Shown here: in pieces, positions 3,430 through 51,099 of the stretch
Layout of the letters: each line of letters begins with the position of its first letter
Numbering within the stretch: the first letter of the stretch is position 1
From: Welwitschia mirabilis
Taxonomy: Eukaryota
Direction of reading: 5' to 3'
Length of the DNA stretch: 64,000 nt
Assembly (NCBI GenBank): GCA_051453625.1
Contig: JBOZIK010000001.1
Location: forward strand, 47,674,809 to 47,738,808
Program-made: the position numbers and the translations under genes
The notes under the pieces: generated by a model
What the model was told of the DNA's origin: nothing
Seen by the model: only the letters and a program-made list of their open reading frames with translations
The model's database searches: none

Positions 3430-4330
3430 GAGCTTTTAAGGATGGATAAAAAGGACAGCCCTTATCACTTCAAAGGAGGACCTATTGGAAACTTTGGCAG
3501 ATTATTAGTGTGATGTCATTTCTCCCCAACACTCAAATGTTAGCCTTCTCAAAATGGAAGGCCATCTTGTAGACTTGGTAGAGCATTGAGAGCATATCCC
3601 TTCCTCTTCAATACTCACGCAAGACTGGGATGTTGGTTGAGCTTTCTCAAACGCCATAGACATGACCTCTTGCAACTTGGTAAAAGGATTATAACCCTTC
3701 CTCTCTAGTGCTCAAGGACTTGCTTGGACATTGGTTGGACTAAATCTCTCAATCCTAAGAGGACAAGGGTCTACAAAAGGCTCATCTCCAAGGTATAAAG
3801 AGTCACTATCAAAATAGCAACTTTCACAACTTCAAGTGACTAGCAAAAGAACACTAACCTTCTGAGGATAGGGGACTTTAGTTCTGCCCCATTTGTCTTT
3901 GCTAATTGGAGTCACAAAGCTCTCTCAATGGAGAAGTCACACAACTCTCTCAATGGAGTCATGAAGACAGACAGCAGATGTAGTTGACTTTAGGTTTTGG
4001 GCATTTTAGGCACCATTTCAGCAAAGATTTTGTCATCAAAAAAGACTAGATTTGTTCAAGCAGAAATAGAAAACTTCTCCTAATCTTGTTCTTCTTCCAT
4101 TTGAGCTACCATTGGAGTTACAACTTGGATTGTTTCCAAGTAAACTTCCACATAGACTGCATAATTGGAGCAAAGGCCTGAGGAACACTGCCAAGCTTCA
4201 AGGCCTCTCCAAAAATCTTGGTAGGAATTGCCTTTGATAGGTATACATGGTCATGTAAACTCTATAAGCTTCTTGGCAAGGTGTGTGCTNNNNNNNNNNN
4301 NNNNNNNNNNNNNNNNNNNAAGTAGACCTA
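3430..4330 (-). mobile_element. Degenerate gypsy-like fragment inside the gene's intron or downstream region
   Basis: The minus strand near 3460-3510 reads approximately NRSSFEVI, like the integrase SPFEVVYG motif. The rest is too decayed to assign. Confidence 0.3.
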
Positions 4331-26398: not shown

Positions 26399-28170
26399 TA
26401 TAAAATAGGTAGTAAAATTGGAGCTTAATTATTGAGAAGGGAAAGAAGAAGAATAAAATATCTTTTTCATACTATGTTGAGAATTTATGTTAGATTTAAA
26501 CCTGTAGTTCCATTATGAATCTTGAAATTTCTGTAATGTAACTATTTTGGCCTTGAGAATACTTTCCAAGTTAAATTATGTATATTTTGGTTAAATCTTC
26601 TTGATCTTATATATCAAATGTAATAAATTTTGATTTCTTGATAAAAATCTTTATGTTTTTAATGTTAATTTATTAAAATTTTTGTATCAGATTATAGAAT
26701 CTTGTTAGAATAAATGTTAAAATCATTAATTTATTACTATTTCATATTTTTGATATGATCATTAGGCATGTATTTTAGATTAATGATTATTTCATTATTT
26801 CTTGCAATTAGTCATTTTTAATTATGAAAAGATGGACATTTATTTTAGAAGAAAGGGTCATAATAAGAGTAATGTTATAAGCATCTTTAAAAGTTATCGT
26901 TCATGTCAAATAGAATGAAGATAAACTAGTTTATTTAAATAAAATCATACTCTTTAATAAATTATAATATTTTTAAAGATAACTATGGTTATTATATTTA
27001 ACAACTATTATGTTAATAATAAATATTAATATTTTAAATAATTACTGGAGTGAAAAGCAAATGATGTGTAACATATAGGATTCGAACCCTAACCCTCTAC
27101 TTGACTTGTTTTCTCCCTCACCATTACACGAACGATAGGAAAGGTTAAAGGAAAAGAAACGTTAAGGAATTTATGATGTCACCATCATTTTTCTTTTCTA
27201 CTTACATTCAACCTCCATCAGCAGGCTCAATGATGCCATAGACTACCGCTTGTCCTCCTTTTAAACCATATTTCAAGCCTTATAGTTCTTAGTCCTTTCT
27301 CCATGGAAATGCCTCATTTCAAGTCCAGTAATCATCATCTAAATGCATCCAATCCATGTGCTATTAGATAGTAAAATGTAAGGCAAATTGTATGTGGATT
27401 ATGGCATTACAAATATTGATGCCAATGAATGTCTGTAATCTACCGTCGGTATCTCCCAAATGAGAATGATCAATGCTGATTTTAACACAACGTCAATAAA
27501 CTTGACTTTGTTTCAAAGGATTTCATACTACAATTTCATAATTTAATTAGAAGAACTAATGTTTTTTTTCTATCTTAGATCATCCAATAATCTTTTTGTC
27601 ATTCCAATTACTAAAATTAGTCAATGAAACATCTTGTAATAGTTTAGCAAGAGCATATACAATATAGATTGAATAGTGGAAAGGAAGCCTGTTTGTACAT
27701 CATTAGAATGCCTCTAGTAACTACATCATAACCTAAATAGATTGCTCCTACCCCTTAGCATATCTCCCCTCTCCTCCATTTTATTCTTCTTCCCTAATTG
27801 TGTAATGAACTAGGAAAATTGTTGATTGACACTCTGTGCCCTGCAAATAAATACTTGTGCCTACTTTGTCCTTTTCTCTCATCTATATCAACATCAAACT
27901 TCTCGTAATTTATAAGTGTTTTAATCAAAAAGAAAACATGTCTGCATGATCCTTGATGAAAATGCACTTCTCCAAGAATAATGAATGCCTCATCTTGCAG
28001 GATTATTTAATTTAATTTGCCTTGCACTTTTAATTCTTACATAGCTTATTTCAGTTTGCATACAATAAATCACCATCTTTCTTAAACCTAATTGAGAAAT
28101 TAGCATTATCAAGAAAATTGATCAAGGTAAGTAAAGAGTTGGTTATGCCTTCAACCCTTACACTGTGTCT
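26399..28170 (+). repeat. Left arm of a long inverted repeat (foldback)
   Basis: Reverse complement of 28883-30738 along its length. Examples: TGTAACTATTTTGGCCTT pairs with AAGGCCAAAATAGTTACA, and TAGTCAATGAAACATCTTGTAATAGTTTAG pairs with CTAAACTATTACAAGATGTTTCATTGACTA. Confidence 0.95.
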
Positions 28171-28196
28171 GTTTCATCTTACTCCTTCTTTTATTC

Positions 28197-28648
28197 ATCT
28201 AAATTCATATGTACAATGTAGAAATATACTAAATTCTTAGATACAAACTTGATTTGAAGGAAAATATAAATATAACTAATTATAGCCATCTATTTATAAT
28301 GTTAAGACTTTTATTAGTGTTATCCAATTTAAATATTAAGTAAGAATATTATTTACATTAAGAATTTAAATGAAATGGAGACAAATAGTTAGACTTGTTT
28401 AAATACACAATGACATCACTAGATTTTTAGGAATTAACTTCTGTTTTTAGATATTATATCTTGTCTTGATGTATTATCTAAATGTAAACATTACATTTAA
28501 GAAACATTTAGAATAAGGGATTTTAAACTCCTAACTCCCTACATCATTGTAAAGAGATGGCTATAATTAATTATATTTTTATTTTCCTTCAAATTATGTT
28601 TGCATTTAAGTATTTAGTATGTTTCTACATGGTACATATGAATTTTGA
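28197..28648. mobile_element. MITE-like element with ~90-bp terminal inverted repeats
   Basis: 28200-28291 (AAATTCATATGTAC...ATTATAGCCATCT) is inverted at 28555-28646 (AGATGGCTATAAT...GTACATATGAATTT). A second partial copy lies at 23485-23782. Confidence 0.75.
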
Positions 28649-28882
28649 CTAACCTCCCGTCTATTGTGTTTCAAGATTATAATTTATGTAAAAGTAAAAA
28701 AGACCCAAAGATCAAATTTCAAATAAAAGTATTATGTAAGACTTGAGCTAAAAACCTAAGTCTTTGCATTTAATTTGATATCCATTTTGGCCATCAGCTC
28801 TTATTTTGTTATTATTTGCATTGTATACGTTAAAACCATGATTCAAACGCTTCCAAGATTGAGATGCTTTTCAACAAATAGA

Positions 28883-30738
28883 AGATATGGCATAGGGGTT
28901 AAAGGCATAACTGGCACTTTATTTATCTTGATTAATTTTCATGATGATGCCGATTGCTTGATTAGATTTAAGAAAGACGACAATTTATTGTGAGTAGACT
29001 GATAAGTTATGTAAGGATTGAGAGTGAAGGGTAAATTAAATTAACTAATATTGAAAGATCAAGTATTGATTATTCTTGAAGAAGGGTGTTTTCATCAAGA
29101 ATCATGTGGACAACCTCCCTTTTCAATTAAAACAGTTATGAATGGTGAGAAGTCTAATGTAGATACAAATGAGAGCAAGGAACAAAGTAGGCACAAGTAT
29201 TTATTTATAGGGCATAGAGTGTTAATTAACAATTTTCCTGGTTTACTACACAATGGGAGAAGAAGAATAAAATGGAGGAGATGGAAGATATGCTAAGGGG
29301 TAGGAGCACTCTATTTGGGCTATGATGTAGGCATAGAGGCATTTTGATGATGCATAAATAGGCTTCCTTTCTACTATTCTGACTATATTGTATACATTCT
29401 TACTAAACTATTACAAGATGTTTCATTGACTAATTTCAAAAATTGGAATGACACAAAGATTTTTGGATGATCTGAGAGATAGAGGAAAAAAACATAAGTC
29501 CTTTTGATTAAATTATAAAATTATAGTATGAAATCCTTCAAAGCAAAATTGAGTTTATTGATGTTATGGTGAAATCAACATTGATCATTCCAATTTGGAA
29601 GGTACCAACAGTGGGTTACAGGCATTTAATGGTATTAATTTTTACAATACCATAACTCATGTATAATCTACCTTGCGTTTCAATATCTGATAGCACATGG
29701 TAAGAATTTGGGAGGCATTTAGATGGTGATTACTAGACTTGAAGCGAGGCATTTTCATGGAGAATTAACTGAGAACTTTGAGGCTTGAAATATGGTTTAG
29801 GAGGAGAGAAAGCGACAGTCTATGGCATCATTGAACCTATTGATGGAGGTTAAACATAAGGGTAAAAGGAAATTGATGTTGACATCATAAATTCCTTAAC
29901 ATTTCTTTTCATTTAATATCTCTTATCATTCATGTAATGGTGAGCAAGGAAAGATGTCAAGTAGAGGGTCGAGGTTTGAATCCTATATGTTACACATCAT
30001 TTGCTTTTTCCTCCACTAATTATTTAAAATATTAATATTTACTATTAACATAATAGTTATTAAATATAATAACTATAGTTATCTTTAAAAATATTATAAT
30101 TAAAATATTAGTATTTATTATTAACATAATAGTTATTAAATATAATAACTATAGTTATCTTTAAAAAATTATAATTTATTAAAAAAATTTAGTTTATTTA
30201 AATAAGCTAGTTTATCTTTATTCTATTTAATGTGAACGAAACCTTGTAAAAATGCTTATAACTGTCATCTTATTATGACCCTTTCTTCTAAAATAAATGT
30301 CTATCTTTTCATAAGTAAAAATAACTTATTGCAAGAAATAATGAAATAATTATTAATCTAAAATAGATGCCTAATAATCATAAAAAAATATGCAATAGTA
30401 ATAAAGCAACGATTTTAACATTTATTCTAATGAGATTCTACAATCTGAATACAAAAATTTTAACAAATCAACATTGAAAATATAAAGATTTTTATCAATA
30501 AAATTAAAATTTATTAAATTTGATATACAAGATTAAGAAGATTTAACCAAAATATACATAATTTAATTTGGTAAGTATTCTTAAGGCCAAAATAGTTACA
30601 TTATTGAAATTTCAATATTCACAAAGGAACTATAGGTTTTAATTCAAGGTAAATTCTCAACACAATCTGAAAAAGATATTCTCTTCTTCTCCTTGTCCTA
30701 CTCGATAATCAAGCTCTAGTTTTACCACCTATTTTATA
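28883..30738 (-). repeat. Right arm of a long inverted repeat (foldback)
   Basis: Reverse complement of 26399-28170. Carries an arm-specific ~76-bp tandem duplication at 30025-30175. Confidence 0.95.
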
Positions 30739-32575
30739 ATATATTTTTACTTATATATGTTTAAAATTAGTAAGAAAATGAAAAAGGGAATGAATACAAC
30801 CATGCCTAGGATACTAGTGGGTAATAGGAAACAAAACACCACGAAGAACTAGCATGATACACACTAGTAAATATGAGATAGGAACTTAAGGAGGAAAACA
30901 TTTCAAACAACTGAAGGATTTAGAATATATTAAAAAAGGAATGGGATGTATGCATAGGACCTAGGATGTTAAACATAATGTTATAAGTAAGAGCTATATC
31001 AGATGACCTTAGATAATTAACAGGAAAATTTTTAGTATAATGATAAGAATTAGGTTAAGGTCATTTAAAATAGGAAATACCCTATTTTAAGTTCTAGGGT
31101 ACTAAGAAATAACACCATGATACTAAGGAAAAATAAAGACTTTATTGGAAACTTATTTGGGTGTGTTTGCCTATAAAAGCAAGCTCTATTATTTGAAAAG
31201 AGAAGAAAAATAAAAATATATTTTCTAAATCTCACTCTCCTTTTTTATTGTTTAAGCTTAATCTTACATGTGGTATTTGGGTAGTTTTATTCTTACATAT
31301 GATATGAGAGCATAAACTATAGTTCATGAAACTCTTAGACCATGCATGCCTTTACATGATTCTTTTACCATAAAGACTTTTAAGACTTTCTCAAATTTTT
31401 TTGAATTTTTTAAAAGTATTTATAAGATTTTTTTTAAGATCTATGTAGTGTCTTTTACTTTCCTTTATTTTTTTTTATTTTCAAGGTTATTGTTCATTTG
31501 TATTGAAGTTATTTACAAGGTTGTTGTTCCTATATGTTTTTAATTCCCAAAGAAGATAAAAAGGCATAAAAGAAGAAGAGCAAGTATTGCATNNNNNNNN
31601 NNNNNNNNNNNNNNNNNNNNNNNNNNNNNNNNNNNNNNNNNNNNNNNNNNNNNNNNNNNNNNNNNNNNNNNNNNNNNNNNNNNNNNNNNNNNNNNNNNNN
31701 NNNNNNNNNNNNNNNNNNNNNNNNNNNNNNNNNNNNNNNNNNNNNNNNNNNNNNNNNNNNNNNNNNNNNNNNNNNNNNNNNNNNNNNNNNNNNNNNNNNN
31801 NNNNNNNNNNNNNNNNNNNNNNNNNNNNNNNNNNNNNNNNNNNNNNNNNNNNNNNNNNNNNNNNNNNNNNNNNNNNNNNNNNNNNNNNNNNNNNNNNNNN
31901 NNNNNNNNNNNNNNNNNNNNNNNNNNNNNNNNNNNNNNNNNNNNNNNNNNNNNNNNNNNNNNNNNNNNNNNNNNNNNNNNNNNNNNNNNNNNNNNNNNNN
32001 NNNNNNNNNNNNNNNNNNNNNNNNNNNNNNNNNNNNNNNNNNNNNNNNNNNNNNNNTTTTCATAAATTTTCATAGATTATTTTTTTGATTGGTTTTCTTT
32101 ATACTATAACAAGATATAGACATAACCAAAACCCTCTATATCAGTTAGAATCAAAGATTCTTTAATTTGTTATGCTTGTTATGAGCAGTATTTAAAAACT
32201 TTCGCTACACATTTGGATAGTATTGTCATTCCTGTTACCATTTAAAACTATTTCATGAAATGCTAATGGGGATTTTATTTTCTTAATTATTGAATGTAGT
32301 TATAGAAATATTCTCTACCTCATCAACCCATAACCTCTCTGTCATCTCTATTGAACAACACCGCTGCATGTCCTTAGCTTATGTTTCCTCTATACTCAAT
32401 GTCACAGTTCTTCACTGGCACCGATTTTGTTACTAATTCATTGCTTATTACTTTAGCATAGTTACTTTTTAGGTGATCTCACATCTATTTGTTACTTCTA
32501 GATGTATAGCTTTATGTCATTGAGTACTAATACCCCTACACGTGCTACCACTGATGGCCATTCTTAGCATGTCAT

Positions 32576-32904
32576 TGTTAGGCCTTTTATCATCACACCA
32601 AAAGCAATAACTTAGGTGGAATTTGGTAATCTAGAATCATTTACATTTACTTACTTATCGAGCTGGGCATGATGACTGCATATTCAACAATCATCCCCTT
32701 GATCCATATGCTAAGAGCTCATATGAACCGGGAAGGCACTAAGAAGACTCGAACCTGAGACCAGCTAATAATCATGGATCTGATACTAATTGTTAGGCCC
32801 TTTACTATGACACCAAAAAACCATGACTTAGGTGGAATCTATAAACTGGAACCCTTTATAATTATCCACTTGTCAAGCTAGGCATGAGTACCGCACACCA
32901 AAGA
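32576..32904 (-). mobile_element. Complete TRIM (terminal-repeat retrotransposon in miniature)
   Basis: 114-bp direct repeats at 32576-32689 and 32791-32904 (TGTTAGGCC...). The 101-bp internal part has a decayed iMet PBS and PPT TCAAGGGGAT on the minus strand. Perfect TSD GTCAT at 32571-32575 and 32905-32909. Confidence 0.93.
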
Positions 32905-33331
32905 GTCATCTGTTATTACCTGCGACCCTATCATCATCGGCTGAATTGCTAAAACCAGTTGCTATTTCTAGTCTCTGGTGACTACATCGCTACTGTAAAG
33001 CCTCTTCTGTTTAAGCTTGGGTAACATAACATAGAGGGCTTATCACTAGACATTTACCATGTCTACAACTCTAGTGATGTCTATTCTCCTGGAAGACAAA
33101 ATTTCTCTCTTTTAATACATACATGGACTTTGACATGAAGATAATCCCTAAGATCCCTTATCATCTTTTCCATTTGCTATATAAGCATATGTGTTTATTA
33201 CCTTAATTTTAAGAACATCATCAAGAGCACCTCTAATGAATCTCAATGCGAAGCCAATGAATTTGGCAAAGTTCTGAAAGAAATGAAGAGAAATATTATT
33301 CTTTATTTTATAAACATCTTACTATAGACAC

Positions 33332-36300
33332 TGTTAAAATGCAATACTAGCTCATGCAACATATTTCTTTGAAGACTTAGTTGTCTGAGCTTACTATTTT
33401 AGTTCTTAGTTTACTTGTTTAATTATTCCTATTTACTTGCTAAGTTGGGTAGTTTAGTACAGAGTTCATTACTTATTTTTAACTGATTTTTTGAATTGTG
33501 CAACTTCTTATTTCCTATTATTTTTGAGTTAATTCTAGTTAGTGAAGTTAGTGGGTTAGTTATTTAAAAGAAGGAGAACTATTATTAAGTTAGTGGAGTT
33601 AGTGAATTAGTTATTGAAAAGAAGGAGAACTATTATTAAGTTAGTGGAGTTAGTGGGTTAGTTACTACAAAATAAGGAGAACTATTATTGAGTTTCTTAC
33701 TTTTTATGCCTATATAAGGCTCTTTAGTTGCATTAAATAAAATTACTCCCTTCACAACATCTGTTTTGTTTTCTATGAGATTTTTTTATAGAGTGCACAT
33801 CCTATTTTCAAATTTATATTTAGTCTTTTTCTCTCTAGTTTTCATCATTTTGGTATCATAGCTAGGTGAATATTTTCTACTAGCAAGATGAATGATCTTC
33901 AAGTTATTAGCAGAATTAGAAAGCTTAACAATCAAAGCAACAATTCATGATCGACATGTATGAAATATAACATGCAAAGCCAAGACTTGTGGGAAGTTGT
34001 CAATGCAAGCAAAGTTATCCAACTGAAAGAGGATGCAAATGGTACATTGCAGAAATGGAGGATAAAAGTGATAAGGCAATGTTTACTTTAAAGACTATGA
34101 TTAAAGAAACACATCTGAAAGGTCAAAACCCCCAAAGAAGCTTGGGACACATTAGCCATGCTTTTCTCAGAGAAGAATGACACAAGGCTTCAACTTCTAG
34201 AGAGCACACTATTTTCGTAGCATAACGCGACATGACGATTGCTCAGTTCTTCCACAAGGTGAAGTTACTATGTCAAGAACTTTCTGAGTTAGATCTAGAA
34301 GCTCTAATCAGGGAAACTAGGATGAAAATAATAATTATCCATGGTTTGAGATCTAAATATAGAAGCTTTATTACTATAGTATAAGGATATCAAGAGCAAC
34401 CATCACTTGTTGAGTTCAAAAATTTTCTTGCTAGTCAGGAAGACTTAGCCAAGAAAATGAGAGGAGTTTCATAGAAGAATGAAGAGGAAGAATTCTATAT
34501 CAACAAAAGCAGATGGAATTCCAAGTAACACACCATTAATGGATCCAATAGGAATGAGGACAATGTAAAAAATAATTAACATAAAGGAAGCGACTATTCA
34601 GGGGGAGATTCGAAGAATCATGGCAATGGTAATAAATTTGAAGGTAAGTGCTACAATTATGAGAAGGATGATCATATGCAAAAGATTATTACAACAAAAA
34701 GTTTCAAAGAAAGTTTTATAATTATGGAAAGGATGGTCAGATGGCAAAAGATTGTCGGTCGAAGAAAAAGACCATAGAGAGTAATGCTGCTACTTCCAAA
34801 AGTGAAGATGAATGAAATGCTAAGTTACTCTTTGATGCAAAGGAGGATTTAGCTCTTATAACAACAATCTTTGAATATATTAATTATGAGAAAGATTGGA
34901 TCATCAACTCAAGATGCTCAAATCATATGATAGGTGATAAAGAAAAGTTGTAGAATTTGTTAGAATACAAAGGGAGCTAAGTGTTGTGACAACCAAAAAC
35001 TCAAAGTTACCGATAGCTCACATTGGTTATATGGTAGTTTCTCCTCAAAATAGTGCTAATGGGGTATCACTTCAAAATGTGTATTATGTTCCAAGTATGA
35101 AGAAAAATATTTTGTCAGTAGTAAAATTTACATCTTTAGGCTATTTTTTTCTATTTGGTATACAAGATATGAAGGTATATTGCGACTTTGAGGCTATAGG
35201 AGAGCCAATGGTGAAGGGATGAAGATTAGAGTCAGTCTATGTGATGTCTTTAGAAACTGCATATGTAGATAAGACGAGTAAGAATGAGACAGCAAATTTG
35301 TGGCACATGTGATTAAGTCACATTAGCTATTCCAAGCTAAACGTGATGATGAAAAATTCAATGTTAAAGGGACTTTTGAAACTCGAATTAAGATCAGATC
35401 TAATCTGCATAGGATGTCAGTATGAAAAAGCACATTAGTTGTCATATGAAGAGTCCAAATTTAAATCAAAGAAACCATTAGAGTTAATTAACTCTAATTG
35501 TTTGGACCTGTTAAGCAAGTCTCTATCAATGGGATGAAGTTTATGGTAACCTTTATTAATGATTTTTCTAAGGATGTGTGGGTTCATTTTATGAAGGAAA
35601 AATCTGAAGTTTTTTTCAATGGGTTCAAAGAGATAGCAGAACCAAAACTCGGTAAGAAAATTAATTACTTGCGTACTAAAAATAGGTCAGAGTATACCTT
35701 AGACAAGTTTTTCAATTTCATTTGAGAGTACCAAATCCATCATCAGTTCACATGTACCAATACTCTGTAGTAGAATGGTGTAGTAGAAAGAAAGAACAGG
35801 CACCTATTAGAAATATGTCATAGCATGCTTCATGCAAAGAATGTTATGGGATGATTTTGGATAGAAGTAATGAATACTATAGATTTTATAATCAATAGGA
35901 TTCCTCAACAAAGGTTAGGTTTTCTTTCACCTTTTAAAAATAGTGGAACATAAAACCTACAGTTAGCTATTTTCATGTTTTCAGATGTGTGTGCTATGTA
36001 TTTGTACATGATCATTTATGTAGCAAGATTAGTAAGAAGGCCATTAGATGTATCTTTATGGAATATGATAGTCAAAGAAAAGGATGAACATGTTGTGATC
36101 CTAAATTGAAAAATGCTACACGTCCCAAAATGTAGTATTTGATGAAGCATATTCTTGGTGGTTTTTAGAAAAGAAGATATTACTAAACTTAGATGCTTTT
36201 AAAGATGAGTTAAAGTTTACTCAAATTCAATTAAATTTAGGTCAAGAAGAAGATGCTGATGATAATGGTTATGTTAAAGAAGGCATAGCTCTTGGTCCTT

Positions 36301-38474
36301 GGCAAACTGATATGCATCATTAACCAAGCAAAGAAGATAAGCCTGTTGAAGTAGTAGTATCAACTCCACTTAGAAGATCAACAAGAATCAGAAAGCCAAA
36401 TTCCAAATATGCTAATGCTTCTATAATAGAAGAAGAAGATGCAATGGAATTAGAGACATTTGAGAAAGCATTTCAGAATCCAAATTGGATTAAAGCTATG
36501 AAAGAAAAACAATGAAATCACACTTGGGTGGTCATGCCAAAGCTAAGAGATGCGAAGCCTATTTCATGAAAATGGGTTTATAAAATAAAATGCCACATAG
36601 ATGGACCGATTAAGAGATACAAAGCTCTTCTAATAGTGAGAGGGTTCTTTCAATAATATGAACTAGACTATAAAGAAATGTTTAGTCCAGTTGCAAAGCT
36701 TACAACTCTGTAAGTCTTACTAGCACTTGTAGCTAGCAAAAGTTGGAATTTGTGATAGATGGATGTGAGGAATGCATTTCTACATGGAGAATTAGATTAA
36801 GAGATATACATGACTTAAATAATGGATTTTCAGAACCAAGATCATCCTTAGTATGTGTATAAGCTTTGAAAGGCACTCTATGAAATAAAGCAGACACTAA
36901 GGGCTTAGTATAATAAGATTGCTGAATTTTTGATTCATATGGTTATTCTATGACACCTATAGATTCTAGTTTATTTATTAAAGTTAATGGAGAAAAACTA
37001 GCTACTATGCTAGTGTATGTGAAATTGTGAAGAAAAAATCCAGTGAATGAAGAAGAATTTATTAATTCATTTCCAAATGAAAGAAATTAGACAACTCAAG
37101 CACTTTCTTGATCTATAGGTTGATCGTACTCAAGAAGGAATATTTCTTCATTAGCAAAAATATTATAAAAAATTGTTGAAGAAGTTTTAAATTCTTGAGT
37201 GCAAGCTAATTTTAACTCTAATGGAGCGAAACACCACAATGTGTGCCCATGAAGGGAGAAATTTGAAAGACATGATAATGTATCGATAGTTGGTGCATAG
37301 TTTGATCTACCTAACTTTAATCAAAGGAGATATTTTCTATGTAGTTGGTGTGAGGAATCAGTACATGCAAAATACAAAGAATCCCCATTTGAAAGGAGTG
37401 CAACAAATTTTAAGATATGTGAAGAGTACTCTAGACTATAGTATCTTGTATAAGAAAGGTGGAGATTGCAAGATAGTTGATTACTATGATGTTAACTATG
37501 CAAGTGATCATGATACTCGACATTCAATTACTGGGTATATTTTTATGCTAAGATGGGAAGCAATTTCTTATTGTAATAAAAGACAGCCAACTGTGTCTTT
37601 GTCAATAATAGAAGCAGAGTATCAAGCTACGACAAGTGTAACTCAAGAGAGTACTTGACTTATGCAATTGTTAAAGGACTTGAATCAGTTAATAGATTCT
37701 ATAGGTCCTCTATATTATGATAATCAGTCAGTAATACGTTTGATAGAGAATCTAGTTTTTCATGCAAGAACTAAACATATGGAGCTGCATTACCATTTTA
37801 TCAGGGAAAAAGTTCTAGAAGAAAAGGTTGAGTTGAAGCATATTCAAAAAAAAAAAAAAAATCAAGCTGCATATTTATTGATGACAAGATTATGTAGCAG
37901 CAAGTTGGAAAACTCTTGTTATTAGCTTGGCATAATGAAAAGAATGAAAGCTAGTGTTGAGTGGGAGTGTTAAAATGCAACACCATCTTATGTAACAAAC
38001 TTCTTTAAAGACTTGGTTGTCTAAGTTTACTATTTTAATTTTTGATTTAATTACTTAATTATTACTATTTACTTGCTAAATTGGTTAGTTTGTTACAGAG
38101 TCTACTACCTATTTTTAGCTTATATTTTAAATTATGCAAGTAGTTATTTCCCATTATTTTCTAGTTGAGTCTAGCTAGTGGAGCTAGTGGGTCAATTACT
38201 GAAAAGAAGGAGAACTGTTATTGAGTTAGTGGATTAGTTGCTAAAAAAAGGAGAACTATTATTAAGTTAGTAGAGTTAGTGGGTTAGTTACTAAAAAAAA
38301 AGGAGAACTATTATTGATTTTGTTCCTTTGTATGCCTACATAAAGCTCTTTAGTTGCATTAAATAAAATTACTTCCTTTACAACATTTGTTTTGTTTTTT
38401 ATGAGATATCTTCTACAAAGTGCACTTCATCTTCTCAAATTTATATTTGGTCTTTTGCTCTCTAATTTTCATCA
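33332..38474 (+). mobile_element. Full-length degenerate Ty1/copia element with both LTRs
   Basis: LTRs at 33332-33847 and 37968-38474 (TGTTAAAATGCAA...TTTTCATCA). PBS TGGTATCATAGC at 33851, PPT GAGTGGGAG before 37968. Motifs: gag QDLWEVV, protease WIINSRCSNHM, integrase FGPVKQ...FINDFSK, RT MDVRNAFLHG, RNase [19 protein letters not shown] and FHARTKH. Confidence 0.97.
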
Positions 38475-38545
38475 GAGTGGTGTAGCGGAGGTGTGATGGG
38501 CCCATAATCCACAGGTACTAGGATCAAAACCTTGCTTCGATACCA
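38471..38545 (+). pseudogene. Retro-copied initiator tRNA-Met(CAT) including the 3' CCA
   Basis: ATCAGAGTGGTGTAGCGGAGGTGTGATGGGCCCATAATCCACAGGTACTAGGATCAAAACCTTGCTTCGATA-CCA is colinear with plant cytosolic tRNA-iMet over 72 nt. It has about 12 substitutions, mostly transitions, an intact anticodon and an encoded CCA. Confidence 0.93.
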
Positions 38546-38753
38546 TGTCTATCCCTTGATCCACATGCCAAGTGCTCACATGAAACGGGAAGCCACCAGG
38601 GAGACTCAAACCTGAGACTAGCTAATAATCATGACTTTGATACCAATTGTTGGACTCATTACCATTACACCAAAATCCATGACTTAGGTGAAAACTTGAC
38701 CCATCATATTTCACCCACTGGTTGGGCTGAGCATGAGGACTGCATAACCAATA
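38546..38753 (-). mobile_element. Second TRIM copy (one LTR, PBS, internal domain, PPT); same family as 32576-32904
   Basis: ATCCCTTGATCCA...GACTCAAACCTGAGACTAGCTAATAATCATG...TGATACCAAT matches 32693-32790. The LTR is at 38648-38753 and the other LTR is absent. Confidence 0.92.
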
Positions 38754-39902
38754 GATACCTGAGAGGATGTGTAGCACAATCAATTTCTCTTCAAAATATT
38801 CAACTAAGTTTTAGTTTATAGTAGATTTTTACACCAACTTGTGAAGGGTATTACAGTGTCAGAAGTAGGGCCAATGACACGGGTATAACTGATGCACTAA
38901 ATTCTTTTCATATTCCCTAGTTTTAAGGGATAGTAGTGGAATTGTGGAAGATCTTTTAAGTGTTGTATCTATTAAGTAAATGAATGATGCATAACATAAA
39001 TAATAAAGAAGTGGATAAGACCAGCTATATATTTCAAAAGAAGAGAAATCATTAACTCTATTATTATGTGTTTTCCTTCCTAAGATTTAATTAAATCCTC
39101 CTAAAATCATTTTTTTACCTCTTTGTGTGGTATATTTTCCTTTTAATAGGCTTTCTTTTGTAGTTTTAGAGTTTAAACTTATCATAAATTGTTATGATTT
39201 CATTATAGATCTACTCATTTTGAGTTACTTTCTATTTTTAAAATTTTGAACTTTCTTTAGTATTGTAAACCTAAAATTTTTAAAATTTCTTAGACTAAGT
39301 CAAGTTGAGATATCTAATAAGATCCACTTGACTTGATTGTCTCTTTTAAACCTCATTATTTCACTTATAATTTAAATAGGTAAAGTTAAGAATGTTGTTA
39401 AGAAAGATCCACTTAAATTAACTATATCAAAATAAAGCCACTTTTTGCTTTTTTTGGTTTCTTAGGGCGTCTTTATTTTTTAAACTTAATAATAAAATTA
39501 AAAATTATACACTTCTTAATCACATAAGATATTTCACTAGCAATAATTCTTGGTTAATGGTGGATTCAGTCCTTTACATAGACATTGATCTATGTAATGC
39601 TACATTGTTTTTTGAGCTTGTTATATACTATTTAACTATCATAACTATGTAGTTTGATCCATATAGAGTGCCACGTCTCTCTAAACAGAAACATATTAGG
39701 CATTTAAAGTTATAGATTCCCATGTAAGCCTTAGTGATTAAGGGTGTATTAAGTGAAGACTAGAGGCACAATGGTAGGGTCTACTTAAATTTTATCATTA
39801 AGTCAGTAAGGAGGCATAAGTGTAATAAAAATTTAAAATTTACTGAGTCTAAGGTATAATGAAAACTAATCAACAAATTAGATGCCTCACTAATGTGATT
39901 TA

Positions 39903-42900
39903 TATTGAATTATTATTTGCCAATAGATGTCAAACTAATGGTTTTTATGTAGCATAATTTGTTTTATTTTGTGTAGAAAATATTGATCAGGTTAAAAGCT
40001 GTAGCAATGTATGTCACATTTTGATCTTGAAACCTGTTAAGTTGTGTTACCCTCTTAAGGGATCAATCGAAATTCTAAGGAGTCGACCACACCTAATGCG
40101 AACTCTCAGAAAAGAACTGAATTTAAAGGGATTGACCAAACATCTAAGGGGTCGATTGGACCTATGAACCTAAGAACCAATACTCCTGAACTGATCATCA
40201 AGGGTTCATACAGACATATAAGGGGTCGACTAGACATGAGTACTATGCACCCAATTCTTCCTAGCAGATCATCAAGGAGTTGGCCAGACACCTGAGGGAT
40301 TGACTAGATCTAAGAACTTTGCATCAATACTTCACACTCAATTAGCAAGAGGTCAACCAGATTCTCGAGAGGTCGCCTGAACCTGATGCAGAAAAACTGA
40401 GATGGATTTTATCAAGACTAAGTAGGTGACTAGATAGATCTACGGGTGACTGGATGAGCAGTCGACTAGATCCTAAGGGTTTAACTAGACATGGAGTCAT
40501 AAGAAACTGGATCAACCAAAAAGGTCACTAAGATGACTTGTTTAAGTGATAGCACTCGGAGGGATCGACCAGACTTTTGAGAAGTCGACTGATCGGAATG
40601 AAAATCTAAATTTTATAACCATCATGTAGTTATTTTATGGCCATTGGAAGTGCGTTTTCACTTGTAATAATCCTAAAAGTCTTCCACTACAAATAGCCAA
40701 GAGTCAAATCACTGTAACATCTTTTGTCAAACTATTGGATCTTGCGGATTGATTAGTGTACTCATTTGGCATTGTATTCCTGGCTAAAGAAAGACCAACA
40801 TTTATTACATCTTTGCATATAAGGTCAGATTTATAGCACTCCCTTGTTCTTAGATTATTTCATCTTTAAGTGAAGTACTTCATTACTTTCATCGAGCCAA
40901 AGATCAAGTGGTACCTATGCACTTGGGCATACTTTCATCACTATCATGTTTTCTTGCACAAAGGTTGAGACTGAGCCTTCAAAAAAGTCTGTTTATAAAG
41001 GTTACAAGTTAACTTGCAATACCTGGAAGAGTTTAATAGAGATCCGGATTAGGCTTGGATAGAAGCTAATTATCAAGAGTGGAATAGGATTTTTTCCAAA
41101 CCACTATAAAAACTTGTGTGCATATGATCGGTATTTGTGTGCTTTCTATTATTTTTATTTTTTAGAATACTTTTAGTTTTTATGCCTACTTTTTCCAGTG
41201 ATTCTTTTTCAAGTATAGTATTTTTATTTGAAGATTATTCAATAAATTTTTAGAATCCTATTCACCCCCCTCTCCCCTCCAAGGGTTGTCGATCCTTCAA
41301 TTGGTATCAGAGCTACCTTGAGTTTTTATTAAGATTTTAACCAATCTAGAGTCTAAAACCTGAAAATGAGTAATCCCTTTAATGGTTTTTCCACTGGTCC
41401 TTCACCTATATTTTATGAGCTAAATTATGCTTATTGGAAAGCTTAAATGAGAATATTCCTTAGATTCCTAGATGTAGATATTGAAAAGGTTATTTATGCC
41501 TGCGTTAGCAAAACATAATACAAATGGTAATCCCATTTTAGTCCCAAAAACCTAAGACCAATGGACTACCACTAATAGATCTAAAGCTATCAGACGTCGG
41601 TGATCTTAATGCTATATTTTATGTAGTTTATGTAGATAAATTTAAACAGATTATAAATTGTGAACATGCAAGAGAAGCATGGGATATTCTTAAAGTTACA
41701 CATAAAGGAACTTTCACAGTCAAGCAAGCCAAGCTCCAAATTCTTATCCCAAAATTTGAAGACATTTATATGGATGAGAAGGAAACATTATAGGACTTCT
41801 TTACTAGAATTATCAACATTATCAATTCTATGACAAGTCTACATAAATGATTAGATGAAGCAAAAGTGATAAAAAAAGTGCTGAGATTGTTTCCAAAGAG
41901 ATTTGAACTAAAAGTCATAGCTATCAAAGAAAGTAAGAATATCAACATAATGGTACTAGAAAAGCTTTAAGGTAATTTGCAAACATATGAACTAAATTTT
42001 CTAAAGATAAGAAGAAAGGTATTGCTTTGAAGTGTGTGCAGGAAGAGTATAAGTTAAAGAAGTCAGATTAAGAACTAAATGATAATGAAGTTTCTCTCCT
42101 AATAAGAAGATTCAAGAAATTCTTATACAAAAGGAAAAAGAAAGGTAAGCCAAGTAGAGGTATAAGACAAGAATACAAAAAGTACAGGAAGGAGTAAGAT
42201 AGAAAAAAAAAAGAGATCCAATGCTACGCTTGTAAAGGCTTTAGACATATGAAAAATGAGTGCCTAAACAACAAAAGAGAACACAAAAAATCAAAGACAT
42301 CTTTATTTGTTGCAACATGGGATAATGTGGATGAGGATTATGATAGCAATTCGGATCAAGACTCAGATGGAGATAAAAGACTATCTTTCATGGTGATTGT
42401 TTCTTCTCTACAAAACTTACCTAGCACATCGAAACCTAATGTTTTGAATGTGATTGAAGAAGAATAAGATGAGCTAGAAGATACTTATCAAGAATTATAT
42501 TTGGAATCTGAAAAGTTGGCAAAGAGAATAAATGATCTGAATAAGATTGTAAAGTCTCTCACCAAAAAAAAGAGGAAATGAAATTGAAGTAAAAAAAGAT
42601 CAAATCTAAAAATTCTGATTTTATGTTATAGGTAAAAGATTTATCTCATTTTGTTAATTATATTTTCTTAGAATTTAGAAACCAACTTATGATAAGTTAG
42701 GTATTGGCTTCATCCCTAAAAAATTACAAAATTAGTAAAATTAGGTAACTTGACAAAATAAATTTAGTTCTAAAGCTACTTGTTATTTCTATGGTAAGTC
42801 AGGGCATTCAAAACCATTTTCTAATGCTAAAAGGTTAATGCTATTTTCAAATTCAGTCAGTTCCTTTCCTTTTAAATTTATTTTAAAAGGAGGTATACCA

Positions 42901-45900
42901 CATAAGTCTAAAAGGACTAAGTGGGTGAAAGATAATGATTTGAAATGTCTCTTAATTTAGATAGCTTTCAAAGTTTCAAATGGTAGTAACTGTTATTTGG
43001 ATAGTGAATGCTCAAGACATATGATGGGAGATAAATCTAGATTCAAATAGTTAAGTAACTTTGATGGAGGAGAAGTTAGTTTGATAATAATGAAAGAGTA
43101 AAAATTGAAGGTATTGGAAGCATTGGTGGAGGTAACTTACCTAAAATTAATGATGTTTTATATGTTAATAGTTTAAAGCATAATTTACTGAGTATTAGTC
43201 AAATTTATGATAAAAGTAATAAAGTAGTTTTTAACAGGCCTAAATGTGAAATTTTACATGGTAAAACAAATAATTTTATTCTTAAAGTAAATAGAATAGA
43301 CAATGTTTATAGTATAGATCAATCGTTTTTCTTTTATTATTTTTCTCATGTTGCTCAAGAAGATCTTTAACATAATTAATCAAGTCATATTAATTATAAT
43401 CAATTAAAAATAATTATTTGTAAAAACATTGTGAAAGGTATTCCTAAAATAAATGTTTAAAAACATGGTTTATGTGATGCATGCTAAAATTGAAAACAAA
43501 TAAGAATTTCACATAAAAGTAAAAACCAAGTTTACACAACTATGTCGTTAGAGCTCATTCATATGGACTTGGTAGGCCCCACTCAAACTCAAAGTCTAGT
43601 TGGTAAACACTATTTTCTTACTGTGGTCGATGATTTATCTAGATATACATGGGTTGCATTTTTTTCAAACAAATCTAAAACTTACAAATATTGAGTGGAG
43701 ATATGTAATAAGATTTAAAATAAGAAATAGTATACCATAAAGAAAATAATAAGTGATATGGTGATGAATTTAAGAATTATTTATTTGAGAAATATTGCAT
43801 TGACAATGGAATTAATCATTAATTTTCAGCCCCTAAAACACTGTAACAAAATGGTATAGGTAAAAGAAATAATAGAGTCCTCCAAGAAATGGCACAAACT
43901 ATGTTAAATGACAAGGAGGTTCCAAAATTATTTTGGGTTGAGACTATTAGCAGTGTATGTTATATTATCAATAAAGTTTATCTTAGACTTGGTATGGATA
44001 AAATGTCATATGTGTTATGAAAAGGAAGACAACTTAATGTTTCATAATTTAAAATCTTTGAAAGTAAATGTTATATGCTAAAAGATAGATATTAGTCAAG
44101 AAAATTTAAATCTAAAGCCGATGAAGCTATATTTTTGGGTTATTTAACTAAAAGTAAAGCTTATCATGTCTTCAACAAGAGAAGTCTAACTATAAAAGAA
44201 TCAATAAATGTGCAAATTGATGATGTTAGCACAAAGCCTATTTGTTCAAATGATGAAGAAGACATATCTCCAAGCACGCCCACAACTAATGTAGTATCTA
44301 CTAAGAATGAAGAATGTCCTATAAAAGAAGTGACAACTAAAATGTTCAAAGAGCTAAAAGATCATCCTTTAGGGTCTATTATTGGAGAAGTTAGCTCAAA
44401 AATAAAGATAAGGAGTTCTATAAAGAACTTTTATGCCCACATTTGTTATGTGTCTTAAATATAATCTAAGAAATTTGAAGAACATGAATCCCATAAAGAA
44501 TGGATGACGGCTATGCAGGATGAATTACAATAATATAAGAGAAATGATGTTTGGAAGGCTGTAGAAAGGCTAAAAGACAAAAATGTTATTGGAACAAAGT
44601 GGATCTTTAAGAACAAGTATGATGAAGAAAATAATGTTATTAAAAATAAAGCAATATTAGTAGCACAAAGATACAACCAAATAGAAGGCATTGATGTAGG
44701 CAGCACCTATGCTTCAGTTACAAGGCTTGATAGCATTTGAATGTTTTTATTACTTGTAGCTTTTAAAAATTTTGAAGTGTATCAAATGGATGTAAAGAGT
44801 TAGTTTTTAAATGGTCCCTTACATAAAGAAGTTTATATAGATCAACTACAAGGTTTTATTGATCCTCATAAATCTTATCATATTTATAAACTTAAGAAAG
44901 CTTTGTATGAGTTGAAGCAAGCTCTAAGAGCTTGGTATAAAAAGTTAGCCACTTTTTTGAATGATAATGATTATATTTGTGGAATGGTAGATAAGACTTT
45001 ATNNNNNNNNNNNNNNNNNNNNNNNNNNNNNNNNNNNNNNNNNNNNNNNNNNNNNNNNNNNNNNNNNNNNNNNNNNNNNNNNNNNNNNNNNNNNNNNNNN
45101 NNNNNNNNNNNNNNNNNNNNNNNNNNNNNNNNNNNNNNNNNNNNNNNNNNNNNNNNNNNNNNNNNNNNNNNNNNNNNNNNNNNNNNNNNNNNNNNNNNNN
45201 NNNNNNNNNNNNNNNNNNNNNNNNNNNNNNNNNNNNNNNNNNNNNNNNNNNNNNNNNNNNNNNNNNNNNNNNNNNNNNNNNNNNNNNNNNNNNNNNNNNN
45301 NNNNNNNNNNNNNNNNNNNNNNNNNNNNNNNNNNNNNNNNNNNNNNNNNNNNNNNNNNNNNNNNNNNNNNNNNNNNNNNNNNNNNNNNNNNNNNNNNNNN
45401 NNNNNNNNNNNNNNNNNNNNNNNNNNNNNNNNNNNNNNNNNNNNNNNNNNNNNNNNNNNNNNNNNNNNNNNNNNNNNNNNNNNNNNNNNNNNNNNNNNNN
45501 NNNNNNNNNNNNNNNNNNNNNNNNNNNNNNNNNNNNNNNNNNNNNNNNNNNNNNNNNNNNNNNNNNNNNNNNNNNNNNNNNNNNNNNNNNNNNNNNNNNN
45601 NNNNNNNNNNNNNNNNNNNNNNNNNNNNNNNNNNNNNNNNNNNNNNNNNNNNNNNNNNNNNNNNNNNNNNNNNNNNNNNNNNNNNNNNNNNNNNNNNNNN
45701 NNNNNNNNNATGCAAAAGATTTAATCAAATATTTTGGATTGGAGAATGCTAAAACAACTGATACTCCAATGTCAAATTCTTGTAAAGGCAATTTGGATGA
45801 AAATAAAAATTAGTAGATCAGAAGCTTTATAGGAGCATGATTAGAAGTTTATTATATTTGACTACAAGTAAACCAGATATTATGTTTAGTATTGGTGTTT

Positions 45901-48900
45901 GTGCAAGGTACCGAATCCAACCAAAAGAATCACACTTATAAGTAGTAAAAAGAATAATTAAATATGTAAAAGGCACATGAAATTATGTTTTATGATATCC
46001 TACGGAGACATCATTTGAGCTTGAAGGTTTTAGTAATGCAGATTGGACTAGATGTAAAGATAATAGAAAGAGTACAAGTGGAAATTATTTTCTATTAGAG
46101 TTATGCTTAGTAGGACAGGAAAGAAAAAAGCAAAATTCAATTTCCCTTTAAACAATAAAAGTCAAGTATATTGCAGCAGGGAGTTGTTGTGCTTGTCTCC
46201 TTTGGATGAAGGAAATGCTAAAGGACTTTAATGTAAATTTTAAACAATTTCATATTTTTTGTAATAATACTAGTGCTATAAATATTTCTGAAAATATTAT
46301 TTAGCACTCTAGAGCCAAATATGTTGAACTAAGACATTACTTTTTAAGAGATCAAGTTGAAAAAAGGAATATTATCATGAATTTTGTTAGCACAAATTAT
46401 CAACTGGTAGATATGTTTACGAAACCCATGAATTTTAATAATTTTATTCATCTTTAGAATGAATTGGGATTATCTTGTTATCCTTTGACTGACTGTAGGG
46501 CAGTCAACCAAATCTATGATGCAGTCAACTAGAGCGGTCGGTCGACCGGCCTTAAAGACCAATTGCCAAAACCCTTACTATGTTATAGACCCATGTCTCT
46601 ATGGATCGACTAGAATACAAATTGGTTAATTGGATATGTAGGGTTATAATGCAGAAGTACTATCATTGGACCCAATTCCTTTTTTAAAATTAACCTAATT
46701 GACCTTCTCTATAAAAGCAAGTGGAGCCCAAACCCTTTTTTTAATTTTTTAATGATCTGTCTTTGTCTGATCTAGTGTTTTCTTTATATTTTTCTTATCT
46801 TCAAGATCTTGTCAAGTAATTGCAATGGGAAGAAGGACCAAGGACGTTATAGCTAGAGATCCTTCTTATTTCTACCAGGGCATGTCTGAATATGCTTTGG
46901 AAAAGTTCTCTGAGAAGTTTGAGAAGAAGCCTATATGCTAGAAAAGATATATTGCTGCTTTAGAGTTTAGGGAGGTTGGAGATATGATTCAATCCTTGTG
47001 AGATTAGGATATATCTTATTTTCTTGACGTTTCATGTTTAACTTACTCTTTTCTTACTAGAATGTTTTATTGTAATACTTCTTATGATATTGACTTTAGA
47101 ACCCTTTTAACCCTTGTTTTGGAGAAGAGGATAAAAGTGACAACAAACTTTATTGCGGTTGTTACTGATCTTCTAAGAGGAGACTATGAGCAATTTTTGC
47201 CTCTTCATAACTCCATGGAAGATAAAGTAGAGATCATAAGAAAGCTTGTGGTGAATTCCATAGCTAGAAGAATACTATTTCCACTTCTTTGCTTACTTCA
47301 AAGTACCATTTTCTTCACTTAGTTTTTACCTATAACTTTTTGCCTTTGGAGGGTTATCGTGATGAGGCCTTCAACTATAAGGCCTAGTTGATGTACTTAG
47401 TAGAAACTAAACACTTTATTGATGTCATTACCATTATATTCAAGAATATGGTTTCTCAGTTGGAGTATCAAAGAACTAAGGCTTTATCCTACTCTGTGTT
47501 GAATATGTGCTGTTCTTATTGAATGNNNNNNNNNNNNNNNNNNNNNNNNNNNNNNNNNNNNNNNNNNNNNNNNNNNNNNNNNNNNNNNNNNNNNNNNNNN
47601 NNNNNNNNNNNNNNNNNNNNNNNNNNNNNNNNNNNNNNNNNNNNNNNNNNNNNNNNNNNNNNNNNNNNNNNNNNNNNNNNNNNNNNNNNNNNNNNNNNNN
47701 NNNNNNNNNNNNNNNNNNNNNNNNNNNNNNNNNNNNNNNNNNNNNNNNNNNNNNNNNNNNNNNNNNNNNNNNNNNNNNNNNNNNNNNNNNNNNNNNNNNN
47801 NNNNNNNNNNNNNNNNNNNNNNNNNNNNNNNNNNNNNNNNNNNNNNNNNNNNNNNNNNNNNNNNNNNNNNNNNNNNNNNNNNNNNNNNNNNNNNNNNNNN
47901 NNNNNNNNNNNNNNNNNNNNNNNNNNNNNNNNNNNNNNNNNNNNNNNNNNNNNNNNNNNNNNNNNNNNNNNNNNNNNNNNNNNNNNNNNNNNNNNNNNNN
48001 NNNNNNNNNNNNNNNNNNNNNNNNNNNNNNNNNNNNNNNNNNNNNNNNNNNNNNNNNNNNNNNNNNNNNNNNNNNNNNNNNNNNNNNNNNNNNNNNNNNN
48101 NNNNNNNNNNNNNNNNNNNNNNNNNNNNNNNNNNNNNNNNNNNNNNNNNNNNNNNNNNNNNNNNNNNNNNNNNNNNNNNNNNNNNNNNNNNNNNNNNNNN
48201 NNNNNNNNNNNNNNNNNNNNNNNNNNNNNNNNNNNNNNNNNNNNNNNNNNNNNNNNNNNNNNNNNNNNNNNNNNNNNNNNNNNNNNNNNNNNNNNNNNNN
48301 NNNNNNNNNNNNNNNNNNNNNNNNNNNNNNNNNNNNNNNNNNNNNNNNNNNNNNNNNNNNNNNNNNNNNNNNNNNNNNNNNNNNNNNNNNNNNNNNNNNN
48401 NNNNNNNNNNNNNNNNNNNNNGCCACATCAAATAAATCCTCCAAATCTCCTTCTCCCAAACAAACCTCTCAAGAAAGACATTTTCATACCTAAGGCGGAT
48501 TGACTCTCGTACCAGGCATACGAAGGAAGCTTTCATTATAACTAGGTATGAGGTTACTAACACTTCATAGGAACTAGAAGTTCACCATGAAAGGTAGTCG
48601 AAGAAGAGGAAGAGGAATAAGAAGAATATTCTAAAGAAGAATATGAAGAGGAGAAAGCATAGGAATATGATTAGATCTTTTTTTTCTATGCTTATGTTAG
48701 TATTTCATGCTTGTGTGTATTTCGTTCCTTTGTAATTGATGTCAAAAGGGAAGAATTAGTTATTGTATTTGATACTTTTAGATATATTTGCTCTTAATGA
48801 GCACTTTTTATTGTAATGTTTCTCTTTTAGTAATAGAAATGCACTTCTTTTTATGCTCTATAATTTATGTCTCAAATTTTCTAGTGCATATCTATTTTAC

Positions 48901-50581: not shown

Positions 50582-51099
50582 ATTCATACTTTTGTCTTTT
50601 TGCTTCTTTTGCATATAATGATTACACCCTTAAAGAGGATGTCATCATTACCTAAATGGGGAATAAGATTTAAATTTGATAAAGCTTTTACTTAATCATC
50701 TAATGATTTAGACCCCTTAGATTAAATTTAATACATTCACATAAGGCTCTTAAACAAATATGCTCTATTTTCCTTGTGTGTGTGATCATTAAGGGTTAGT
50801 TTTATCATACTTTGTTATATTTTTATAGATTGGATAGATCAATCAACTTGTGGATGTGAGAAATATCCCTTTCAAATTGATTATACCACTTTATCATTTG
50901 TCTTTTTTAAGATTTTGTTATATCATTATGATTTGAATGAACTGTTTAAACTTATGGATGTAAACAAGATCCCTAGTCAAATTGATTTTATCATTTTATT
51001 TTCTTTTATTTTTTTCTCTTGTTGAGTTGATAAGTATTATTTGTGTGAAGGATAGATCCATTTTTAAGTTATGGATGTGAAAAAGATCCCCTTAAAAAT

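Follow-up and report, generated by a model that had tools for sequence, protein, structure and literature searches.

In long terminal repeat (LTR) retrotransposons, the primer tRNA is joined via its 3' end to the minus-strand cDNA, and a copied primer therefore lies antisense on the sense strand of the element. Removal of the primer and a halt of synthesis when tRNA position 58 is reached belong to the textbook account of LTR replication and are known chiefly from retroviruses and yeast, for the most part through work in the test tube. Genomic fossils in which these steps failed have rarely been described. Here we describe a decayed copy of a complete mature initiator tRNA-Met (tRNA-iMet), CCA included, in a stretch of 64,000 nucleotides of Welwitschia mirabilis (GenBank assembly GCA_051453625.1, contig JBOZIK010000001.1, positions 47,674,809 to 47,738,808 of the forward strand; hereafter the window, whose positions are used throughout). 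The copy lies between a degenerate Ty1/copia element, which we call L, and a truncated terminal-repeat retrotransposon in miniature (TRIM) in the opposite orientation.

Several described systems come close to this arrangement. A model in which tRNA-derived short interspersed elements (SINEs) are born from strong-stop DNA was reportedly put forward by Ohshima et al. in 1993; it goes unmentioned in the review PMC3747384. In vitro, reverse transcription of a tRNA without modifications proceeds as far as the 5' end; the usual halt is imposed by 1-methyladenosine at position 58 (m1A58), and synthesis runs further when the m1A58 methyltransferase is missing (PMC13191261). LTR elements also give rise to chimeric retrocopies: the template is switched where short stretches are alike (median 6 bp, in Drosophila), and 2-26 extra bases are sometimes found at the switches (PMC5131818). 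Tandem TRIM arrays and copia partners of TRIMs are on record (PMC4717578), and strong-stop intermediates, a suggested source of some dispersed repeats of LTR fragments, have been reported in plant virus-like particles (PMC7197481). A complete CCA-tailed primer tRNA fixed beside a plant retrotransposon was not reported in the literature searched, a search whose scope left out supplements and most subscription journals.

The tRNA copy and its two borders are as follows.

38471 to 38545, plus strand: decayed copy of a mature tRNA-iMet (72 bases) plus CCA, the CCA at 38543-38545.
38471 to 38474, plus strand: overlap of four bases, ATCA, which are both the terminus of the L 3' LTR and bases 1-4 of the tRNA.
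38546 to 38547, no strand: two bases, TG, that belong neither to the tRNA nor to the TRIM in the alignments with a second TRIM copy (copy 1, below).

The Rfam tRNA model aligned end to end (positions 1-71 of 71) to 38471-38542 on the plus strand, with the anticodon CAU. A reference was obtained by scanning metagenome contigs with an 18-base motif of the window's anticodon arm, which gave at least 117 loci and 118 usable matches. Among the matches listed, one 72-base sequence was present in 35 of 118, and two close variants in 26 and 7. The commonest sequence begins with ATCA and was called tRNA-Met(cat) by ARAGORN in two loci (L001 and L006), and its 3' end is complementary, with 0 mismatches in 12 bases, to the primer-binding sites (PBS) of two copia-type elements of the window, at 41302 (plus strand) and 2400 (minus strand). 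The window copy is identical to this reference at 60 of 72 positions, and the 12 differences comprise 10 transitions and 2 transversions. Eleven PBS-like sites (at most 2 mismatches in 12 bases) were found in the window; only that at 38471-38545 continues into a full tRNA match of 75 bases, with 8-9 identities in each block of 10, and at the other ten the match drops to chance level after about 12-14 bases. A preliminary description of this DNA had proposed copying past position 58, and this stands, as the match runs beyond that position to at least base 5. The same description had all 72 nucleotides of the tRNA plus the CCA present, which agrees with the full-length alignment and the CCA, except that bases 1-4 are held in common with the L LTR end, so that only 68 bases and the CCA are specific to the tRNA. 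It had placed the end at 38550, which is 5 bases past the CCA. The match is far beyond chance, and 38471-38545 is a decayed pseudogene and not a working tRNA.

The copy abuts an LTR at its 5' end, and its CCA is followed by TGTCTATCCC. A CCA after the tRNA body was detected in 3 of the 118 matches listed; all three are truncated tRNA parts beside LTR-like ends, none of them a gene. No TTTT, as would be expected of an oligo-T terminator, occurs within 28 bases downstream of the copy, and such a run is present in 53 of the 101 gene-like matches listed. Because both ends are those of the mature RNA, with CCA and no T-run, the sequence is better read as a copy of a mature tRNA than as a gene, as had been proposed. 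The full length and the 83% identity to the gene would also be explained by a true nuclear tRNA-iMet gene that degenerated where it stood, with CCA following by chance and transposons inserting around it later. However, both mature-RNA ends also touch retroelement landmarks, the score (20.4 bits, E 0.096) is under the Rfam gathering score of 29, and ARAGORN made zero tRNA calls in the whole 64-kb window, having detected the intact genes in L001 and L006. Taken with the CCA and the missing terminator, this makes a decayed gene highly improbable. The copy also lacks the A-rich tail (no A-run follows the CCA) and the longer, directly flanking duplication of a tRNA retropseudogene mobilised by a long interspersed element (LINE).

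On its left, the tRNA copy meets element L, for which we established the following parts.

33332 to 38474, plus strand: degenerate Ty1/copia element L, from its LTR pair, PBS, polypurine tract (PPT) and Pfam domains.
33332 to 33847, plus strand: 5' LTR of L, which starts with TGTT and ends with CATCA, paired with the 3' LTR by BLAST.
33851 to 33862, plus strand: PBS of L, TGGTATCATAGC, 3 bases past the 5' LTR, which differs at 1 of 12 bases from what would pair fully with the tRNA 3' end.
33863 to 37958, plus strand: internal region of L with a broken gag-pol, from Pfam.
37959 to 37967, plus strand: purine-rich tract GAGTGGGAG just 5' of the 3' LTR, from the sequence.
37968 to 38474, plus strand: 3' LTR of L, which likewise starts with TGTT, with its CATCA end at 38470-38474, paired with the 5' LTR by BLAST.

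The two LTRs are 83% identical over 517 columns by BLAST and 85.0% identical when aligned globally (506 aligned columns). Scanning of the internal region in three frames, with stops replaced by X, detected the Pfam families RVT_2 (2.7e-38), gag_pre-integrs, Pol_BBD and SH3_retrovirus, with weak matches to rve and Retrotran_gag_2; a single frame of this region contains 86 stops. The LTR pair, the PBS for tRNA-iMet, the PPT and the order of gag, integrase and RVT_2 identify L as a Ty1/copia element. At its PBS, the match to the tRNA ends after about 14 bases. No 5-bp target-site duplication was detected at L's own ends, where GACAC faces GAGTG (2 of 5 identical). The LTRs of L also hold tandem units of about 50 bases (33537-33694 and 38243-38323), and reads show many joints that go back by 40-51 bases; the number of these units differs among members of the L family.

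The L LTR pair also dates the tRNA copy. Among the 506 aligned columns, 52 show a transition and 24 a transversion, which corresponds per lineage to a loss of about 0.19 of the C/G sites, on the assumption that transitions are mostly decay of such sites, and to 0.024 transversions per site. Of the 43 C/G sites in the tRNA copy, 8 have been lost (0.19), and there are 2 other transitions and 2 transversions. As this loss equals the rate in the L LTRs, the tRNA copy is as old as L. The preliminary description had suggested testing whether non-transition mismatches fall at modified positions. The outcome is negative: the 2 transversions in 72 bases compare with 1.7 expected from decay alone (P of 2 or more = 0.52). 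A signature of reverse transcriptase (RT) errors at modified bases was likewise rejected, since the changes show no excess that would require such errors, and the two transversions, which we mapped to positions 48 and 64 (position 64 bears a ribosyl-phosphate in plant initiator tRNA), are two events that carry no weight. By our mapping, positions 9, 26 and 58, which we take to be the sites of blocking modifications, are unchanged in the copy; this is compatible with a hypomodified template and does not prove one.

On its right, the 200 bases that follow the tRNA recur at 32696-32895 (77% identity), with a half-unit at 32574-32680. Both places belong to TRIMs on the minus strand.

32576 to 32904, minus strand: TRIM copy 1, complete, 329 bases, from its LTRs, PBS and a perfect duplication.
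32904 to 32791, minus strand: 5' LTR of copy 1, followed by the spacer AT and by the PBS, which starts at 32788.
32788 to 32690, minus strand: internal region of copy 1 (about 99 bases including the PBS), which ends with GGATCAAGGGG.
32689 to 32576, minus strand: 3' LTR of copy 1.
38648 to 38753, minus strand: 5' LTR of TRIM copy 2, about 106 bases, its end set by comparison with copy 1, where the perfect duplication marks the element's limits.
38548 to 38645, minus strand: internal region of TRIM copy 2, collinear with copy 1, with the PBS from 38645 to 38634 and the polypurine end GGATCAAGGGATAGA at 38548.

Copy 1 shows the layout of a TRIM, with two short LTRs (about 114 bases each), a PBS, a PPT, a perfect 5-bp duplication (GTCAT at 32571-32575 and 32905-32909) and no open reading frame (ORF). 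The word ATTG is found at both of its LTR borders. Copy 2 aligns with it collinearly, starting at 38753 with the first 5' LTR base and continuing through the PBS up to the polypurine end, and has the same features apart from a 3' LTR. In place of the 3' LTR that copy 1 has at this point, copy 2 shows two bases followed by the full tRNA complement; the minus strand 3' of copy 2 reads TGGTATCG..., i.e., it starts with the complement of CCA. The preliminary description had retroelement sequence following the tRNA directly. Retroelement sequence is indeed there, but it begins after the two bases TG and is the PPT-side internal end of a TRIM, not the U5 part of an LTR. The neighbour resembles described TRIMs in its LTRs of about 106-114 bases, its PBS for tRNA-iMet, its polypurine end, its 5-bp duplication, its non-coding sequence and its tandem units, and copy 2 departs from them by the tRNA that stands in place of the 3' LTR.

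Searches of 29000-33331 and 38546-39901 in six frames detected no Pfam family except the gag of the next copia element, and the TRIM repeat had no Rfam match at E up to 1. We considered two other identities for this repeat. A SINE or a satellite was suggested by a B-box-like word and by tandem joints and was rejected on the A-B-A layout, the PBS, the polypurine end and the duplication at 32576-32904. An older decayed tRNA copy as the source of the TRIM internal region was rejected as well, the observed local score being reached by 9 of 500 shuffles for copy 1 and 161 of 500 for copy 2; the local alignment of copy 1 to the tRNA amounts to just 17 bases beside the PBS. An assembly gap (a run of N) lies about 500 bases to the left of copy 1.

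The tRNA is in sense orientation relative to L and antisense relative to TRIM copy 2. Given this orientation, it can only have been the primer of the TRIM and not a retained primer of L. The proposal of a retained primer in the preliminary description thus holds in part: the tRNA is antisense to the TRIM, as a copied primer would be, but it replaces the 3' LTR of the TRIM and has the wrong orientation for the copia element. On the TRIM sense strand, its complement starts with that of the CCA and extends past position 58, as expected of primer read-through, but it follows the polypurine end of the element rather than the U5 end of an LTR. The CCA end lies 2 bases from the polypurine border of the TRIM, where the missing 3' LTR would begin. 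Because no LTR stands between the PPT and the tRNA, an extra step is needed, either mispriming or a jump. [quoted passage not shown] Only in extrachromosomal cDNA is the last base of that LTR exposed as a free end, and an overlap at exactly this base points to a finished tRNA copy (...TGAT) that paired with ATCA at the L terminus and was then extended. We conclude that the 75 bases are probably an RT-made copy of a mature tRNA that was joined to free cDNA ends.

A fuller chain of events can be proposed, and to the chain as a whole (the TRIM's primer, complete read-through, four-base pairing with L and integration in one piece) we give slightly less than even confidence. The tRNA would have been the primer on the 5' end of the TRIM minus-strand cDNA. 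This cDNA would have started at or next to the polypurine/LTR border, or it would have lost its LTR by a jump between short repeats such as ATTG. Plus-strand synthesis would then have copied the whole primer past position 58, either because the primer lacked the blocking modifications or because they were read through. The new 3' end (...TGAT) would have paired with the terminal ATCA of the L plus strand or of L RNA and been extended. The predicted product is an inverted chimera of L, tRNA and reversed TRIM, with LTR starts at both outer ends (TGTT... in L), which may have been inserted as one piece, leaving GACAC and GATAC at its sides, all parts decaying together afterwards. For the mispriming step, a pseudo-PBS at the start of the TRIM LTR is conceivable; only TGGT and a bulged AT would pair there, and the junction it predicts is off by 2-4 bases. 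More doubtful is a specific setting in which the TRIM and an autonomous copia element were packaged in one virus-like particle, where a hypomodified TRIM primer would have been fully copied and its copy would have primed on the copia element through 4 bases, the chimera then being integrated by integrase via its two LTR-start ends.

Together, L, the tRNA copy and TRIM copy 2 form a composite block at 33332-38753 (5.4 kb), which is flanked as follows.

33327 to 33331, no strand: left candidate target-site duplication, GACAC, 4 of 5 bases matching GATAC.
38754 to 38758, no strand: right candidate target-site duplication, GATAC, 4 of 5 bases matching GACAC.

The single mismatch is C/T, both words abut the block exactly, and the chance of 4 or more identities in 5 is 0.0156. 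As a sequence feature, the pair fits the insertion of a chimera in one piece. Such an insertion would imply a pre-insertion site ...TACTATAGA(C/T)AC (TATAGA(C/T)AC) joined directly to CTGAGAGG.

The same borders can be read as the product of break repair. A break would have removed the 3' LTR of a resident TRIM, and end joining would have added free L cDNA together with tRNA cDNA as filler, the four-base overlap then stemming from microhomology-mediated joining in the nucleus. Capture of Ty1 cDNA at breaks is familiar from yeast, although our search found nothing useful on it in print. L alone has no target-site duplication, the overlap lies exactly at a free cDNA end, two unassigned bases stand at the other junction and the tRNA is of the same age as L, all of which suit repair. 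Yet the TRIM 3' LTR would have to be lost to within 2 bases with the adjacent five-base word spared, unless the GACAC/GATAC pair is due to chance (P = 0.0156). Captured ends are often trimmed, whereas the left end of L is intact to its first base, and a cDNA of the whole tRNA would still need the same RT read-through. We consider break repair, including its microhomology step, unlikely.

Stepwise nesting would make the tRNA an older retro-copy, into whose 3' end the TRIM inserted (with GATAC as the target) before losing its 3' LTR, and at whose 5' end L inserted or recombined. It would account for the word GATACC at 38754-38759, which equals the tRNA 3' end at 38539-38544, 2 bases from the junction, and nested insertions are the rule here, with at least three LTR elements within 20 kb. 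However, CATG separates the GATACC repeat from the TRIM end, the deletion of the TRIM 3' LTR would have to begin at its first base, and the last 4 bases of L would have to recreate tRNA bases 1-4 by chance (1 in 256). Moreover, L lacks a duplication at its flanks, and the decay of the tRNA is no greater than that of L, giving no sign of an older age. Nesting therefore appears quite improbable, more so than repair of a break.

Copy number was assessed by aligning contigs of three runs and a sample of about 1 in 100 of the raw reads of the run X13 to 38200-38949, at a likeness of at least 80%. The X13 sample has near-zero depth at single-copy sequence, and a family of few copies would be missed in it. 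Its depth per direction is 26-441 over the L LTR; for the L family it stands at 34-39 at 38450-38474 and falls below 1 at 38475. The three tRNA bins have depths of 0.08/0.92, 0/0 and 3.4/2.6 in the two directions, and over the TRIM the depth is 412-662 up to 38699 and about 0 past 38750. In the TRIM family, 38553 is preceded by another TRIM LTR end (353 loose ends in X13, agreement 0.82) and not by the tRNA, and read joints that go back by 139-144 bases indicate tandem units. L and the TRIM are thus high-copy repeats, and neither family includes the tRNA junction. A tRNA-derived SINE would have a multi-copy tRNA head with a common body or tail, and the depth of the tRNA bins (0-3.4 vs 412-662) does not agree with this.

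A false join in a repeat-rich, gapped assembly could also bring such parts together, and both neighbours are indeed high-copy, with six runs of N (2643 bases) in the window. Against such an artefact, contigs of two coded organisms reach roughly single-copy depth over the first tRNA bin (38475-38499; 7.85 vs 8.31 in X1 and 5.16 vs 4.5 in X5), although the assembly may itself derive from one of these runs. X1 and X7 have no coverage in the middle tRNA bin, and none of the listed pieces crosses the whole junction; gaps in coverage prove nothing here. The contig coverage gives partial support to a true join over an assembly error, and we hold an artefact to be very improbable.

The runs of N lie at 4290-4319, 16863-17398, 18857-18866, 31593-32056, 45003-45709 and 47526-48421. 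The last two fall inside a second copia-type element on the plus strand (39902-50584), whose LTRs of about 1.4 kb are 78% identical at a spacing of 9292; its PBS at 41302 has 0 mismatches, and a gag domain lies near 41.6 kb. Inverted self-matches at 28198-28648 and 28002-29049 (71-78% identity) suggest a palindromic or foldback repeat.

Related junctions were found in the metagenome contigs. The three CCA-tailed matches among those listed are tRNA parts truncated at the 5' side (about 52, 66 and 65 bases); TGT..., which has the look of an antisense LTR end, comes 0-5 bases after each. One belongs to a young copia element (L081:429-4900), whose LTR repeats are 98% identical over 174 bases and whose nearly open gag-pol ORF contains rve and RVT_2. 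Immediately after its 5' LTR stand 53 bases that are the complement of tRNA-iMet from about position 23 to 75, and T10 comes next. The other two, in L095 (minus strand; reverse-complement offsets 2389-2670) and L110 (L110:2218-2300), are tRNA-iMet parts of about 66 and 65 bases that start from position 10-11 or so. The neighbour in L095 is a unit of about 200 bases that starts with TGTTAGG and ends with CCTAACA and has no second copy in the locus; direct repeats of at least 60 bases were not found in L095 or L110, and hence no second LTR. Set beside these three of the matches listed, the window case is the complete one and alone of the four in not lying beside an LTR end. Together, these loci suggest that long primer read-through is occasionally fixed in genomes, and that it is recurrent.

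Several observations weigh against the full chain proposed above. It concerns a single locus that is about 15% decayed, so that every junction is read through later mutations, and no further copy of the copia-tRNA-TRIM chimera was seen in the material searched, which did not extend to the whole genome. Textbook read-through puts the tRNA complement after the U5 end of an LTR, as in L081, and here that LTR is absent; neither mispriming nor a jump reproduces the 2-5 junction bases exactly. Integration via two LTR-start ends is unusual. The flanking duplication has a mismatch and was spotted only after L's own flanks had failed and other pairs had been tried, and the GATACC directly to the right of the TRIM 5' LTR, identical to the tRNA 3' end, is left unexplained by the chain. 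The ties between the TRIM and L are the shared primer tRNA and the TGTT starts of LTRs (in L and in 1 of 3 TRIM LTRs), and nothing else.

With these points in mind, the locus can be set beside the described systems. In the SINE-birth model, a CCA-tailed tRNA is likewise followed by antisense retroelement sequence, as when a primer has stayed on its minus-strand cDNA; the window copy differs in being single-copy, with a neighbour that is not U5-R, and it shows no sign of transcription or later movement. With over-extended plus-strand strong-stop DNA, of which L081 is a natural partial case, it shares a sense strand that carries the tRNA from the complement of CCA onward, far past the usual 12-18 bases. 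It differs by its complete 75 bases (the first 4 shared), by the PPT that precedes them and by the second element fused in inverted orientation. As in the LTR chimeric retrocopies (PMC5131818), a copy of a cellular RNA lies between retroelements. Such retrocopies show short shared sequence where the parts are fused, no poly(A) and an LTR-type duplication around the whole; the window shows 4 shared bases at one side and 0-2 at the other, where two extra bases stand, no A-run after the CCA and a candidate duplication of 4 in 5. Set against those retrocopies, the captured RNA is here a primer tRNA complete to both mature ends, the flanks come from two elements that point in opposite directions, and the copy stands beyond the LTRs of L instead of within an element. 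The window locus is a variant of known processes and not a new kind of system; it is single and old and shows no sign of function, and its weight is that of an instructive example.

If our reading is true, in vivo copying of an entire initiator tRNA is within reach of a plant copia-type enzyme, and products of such read-through can still be joined and inserted. The TRIM and the copia element would have met in one particle, which would be direct genomic evidence that L's copia family mobilises the TRIM family. The locus would also be a natural case of the proposed birth route of tRNA-headed retroposons, with a CCA-tailed tRNA and antisense retroelement sequence fixed in DNA. Long primer read-through could be counted systematically and may thereby serve as a natural read-out of primer modification.

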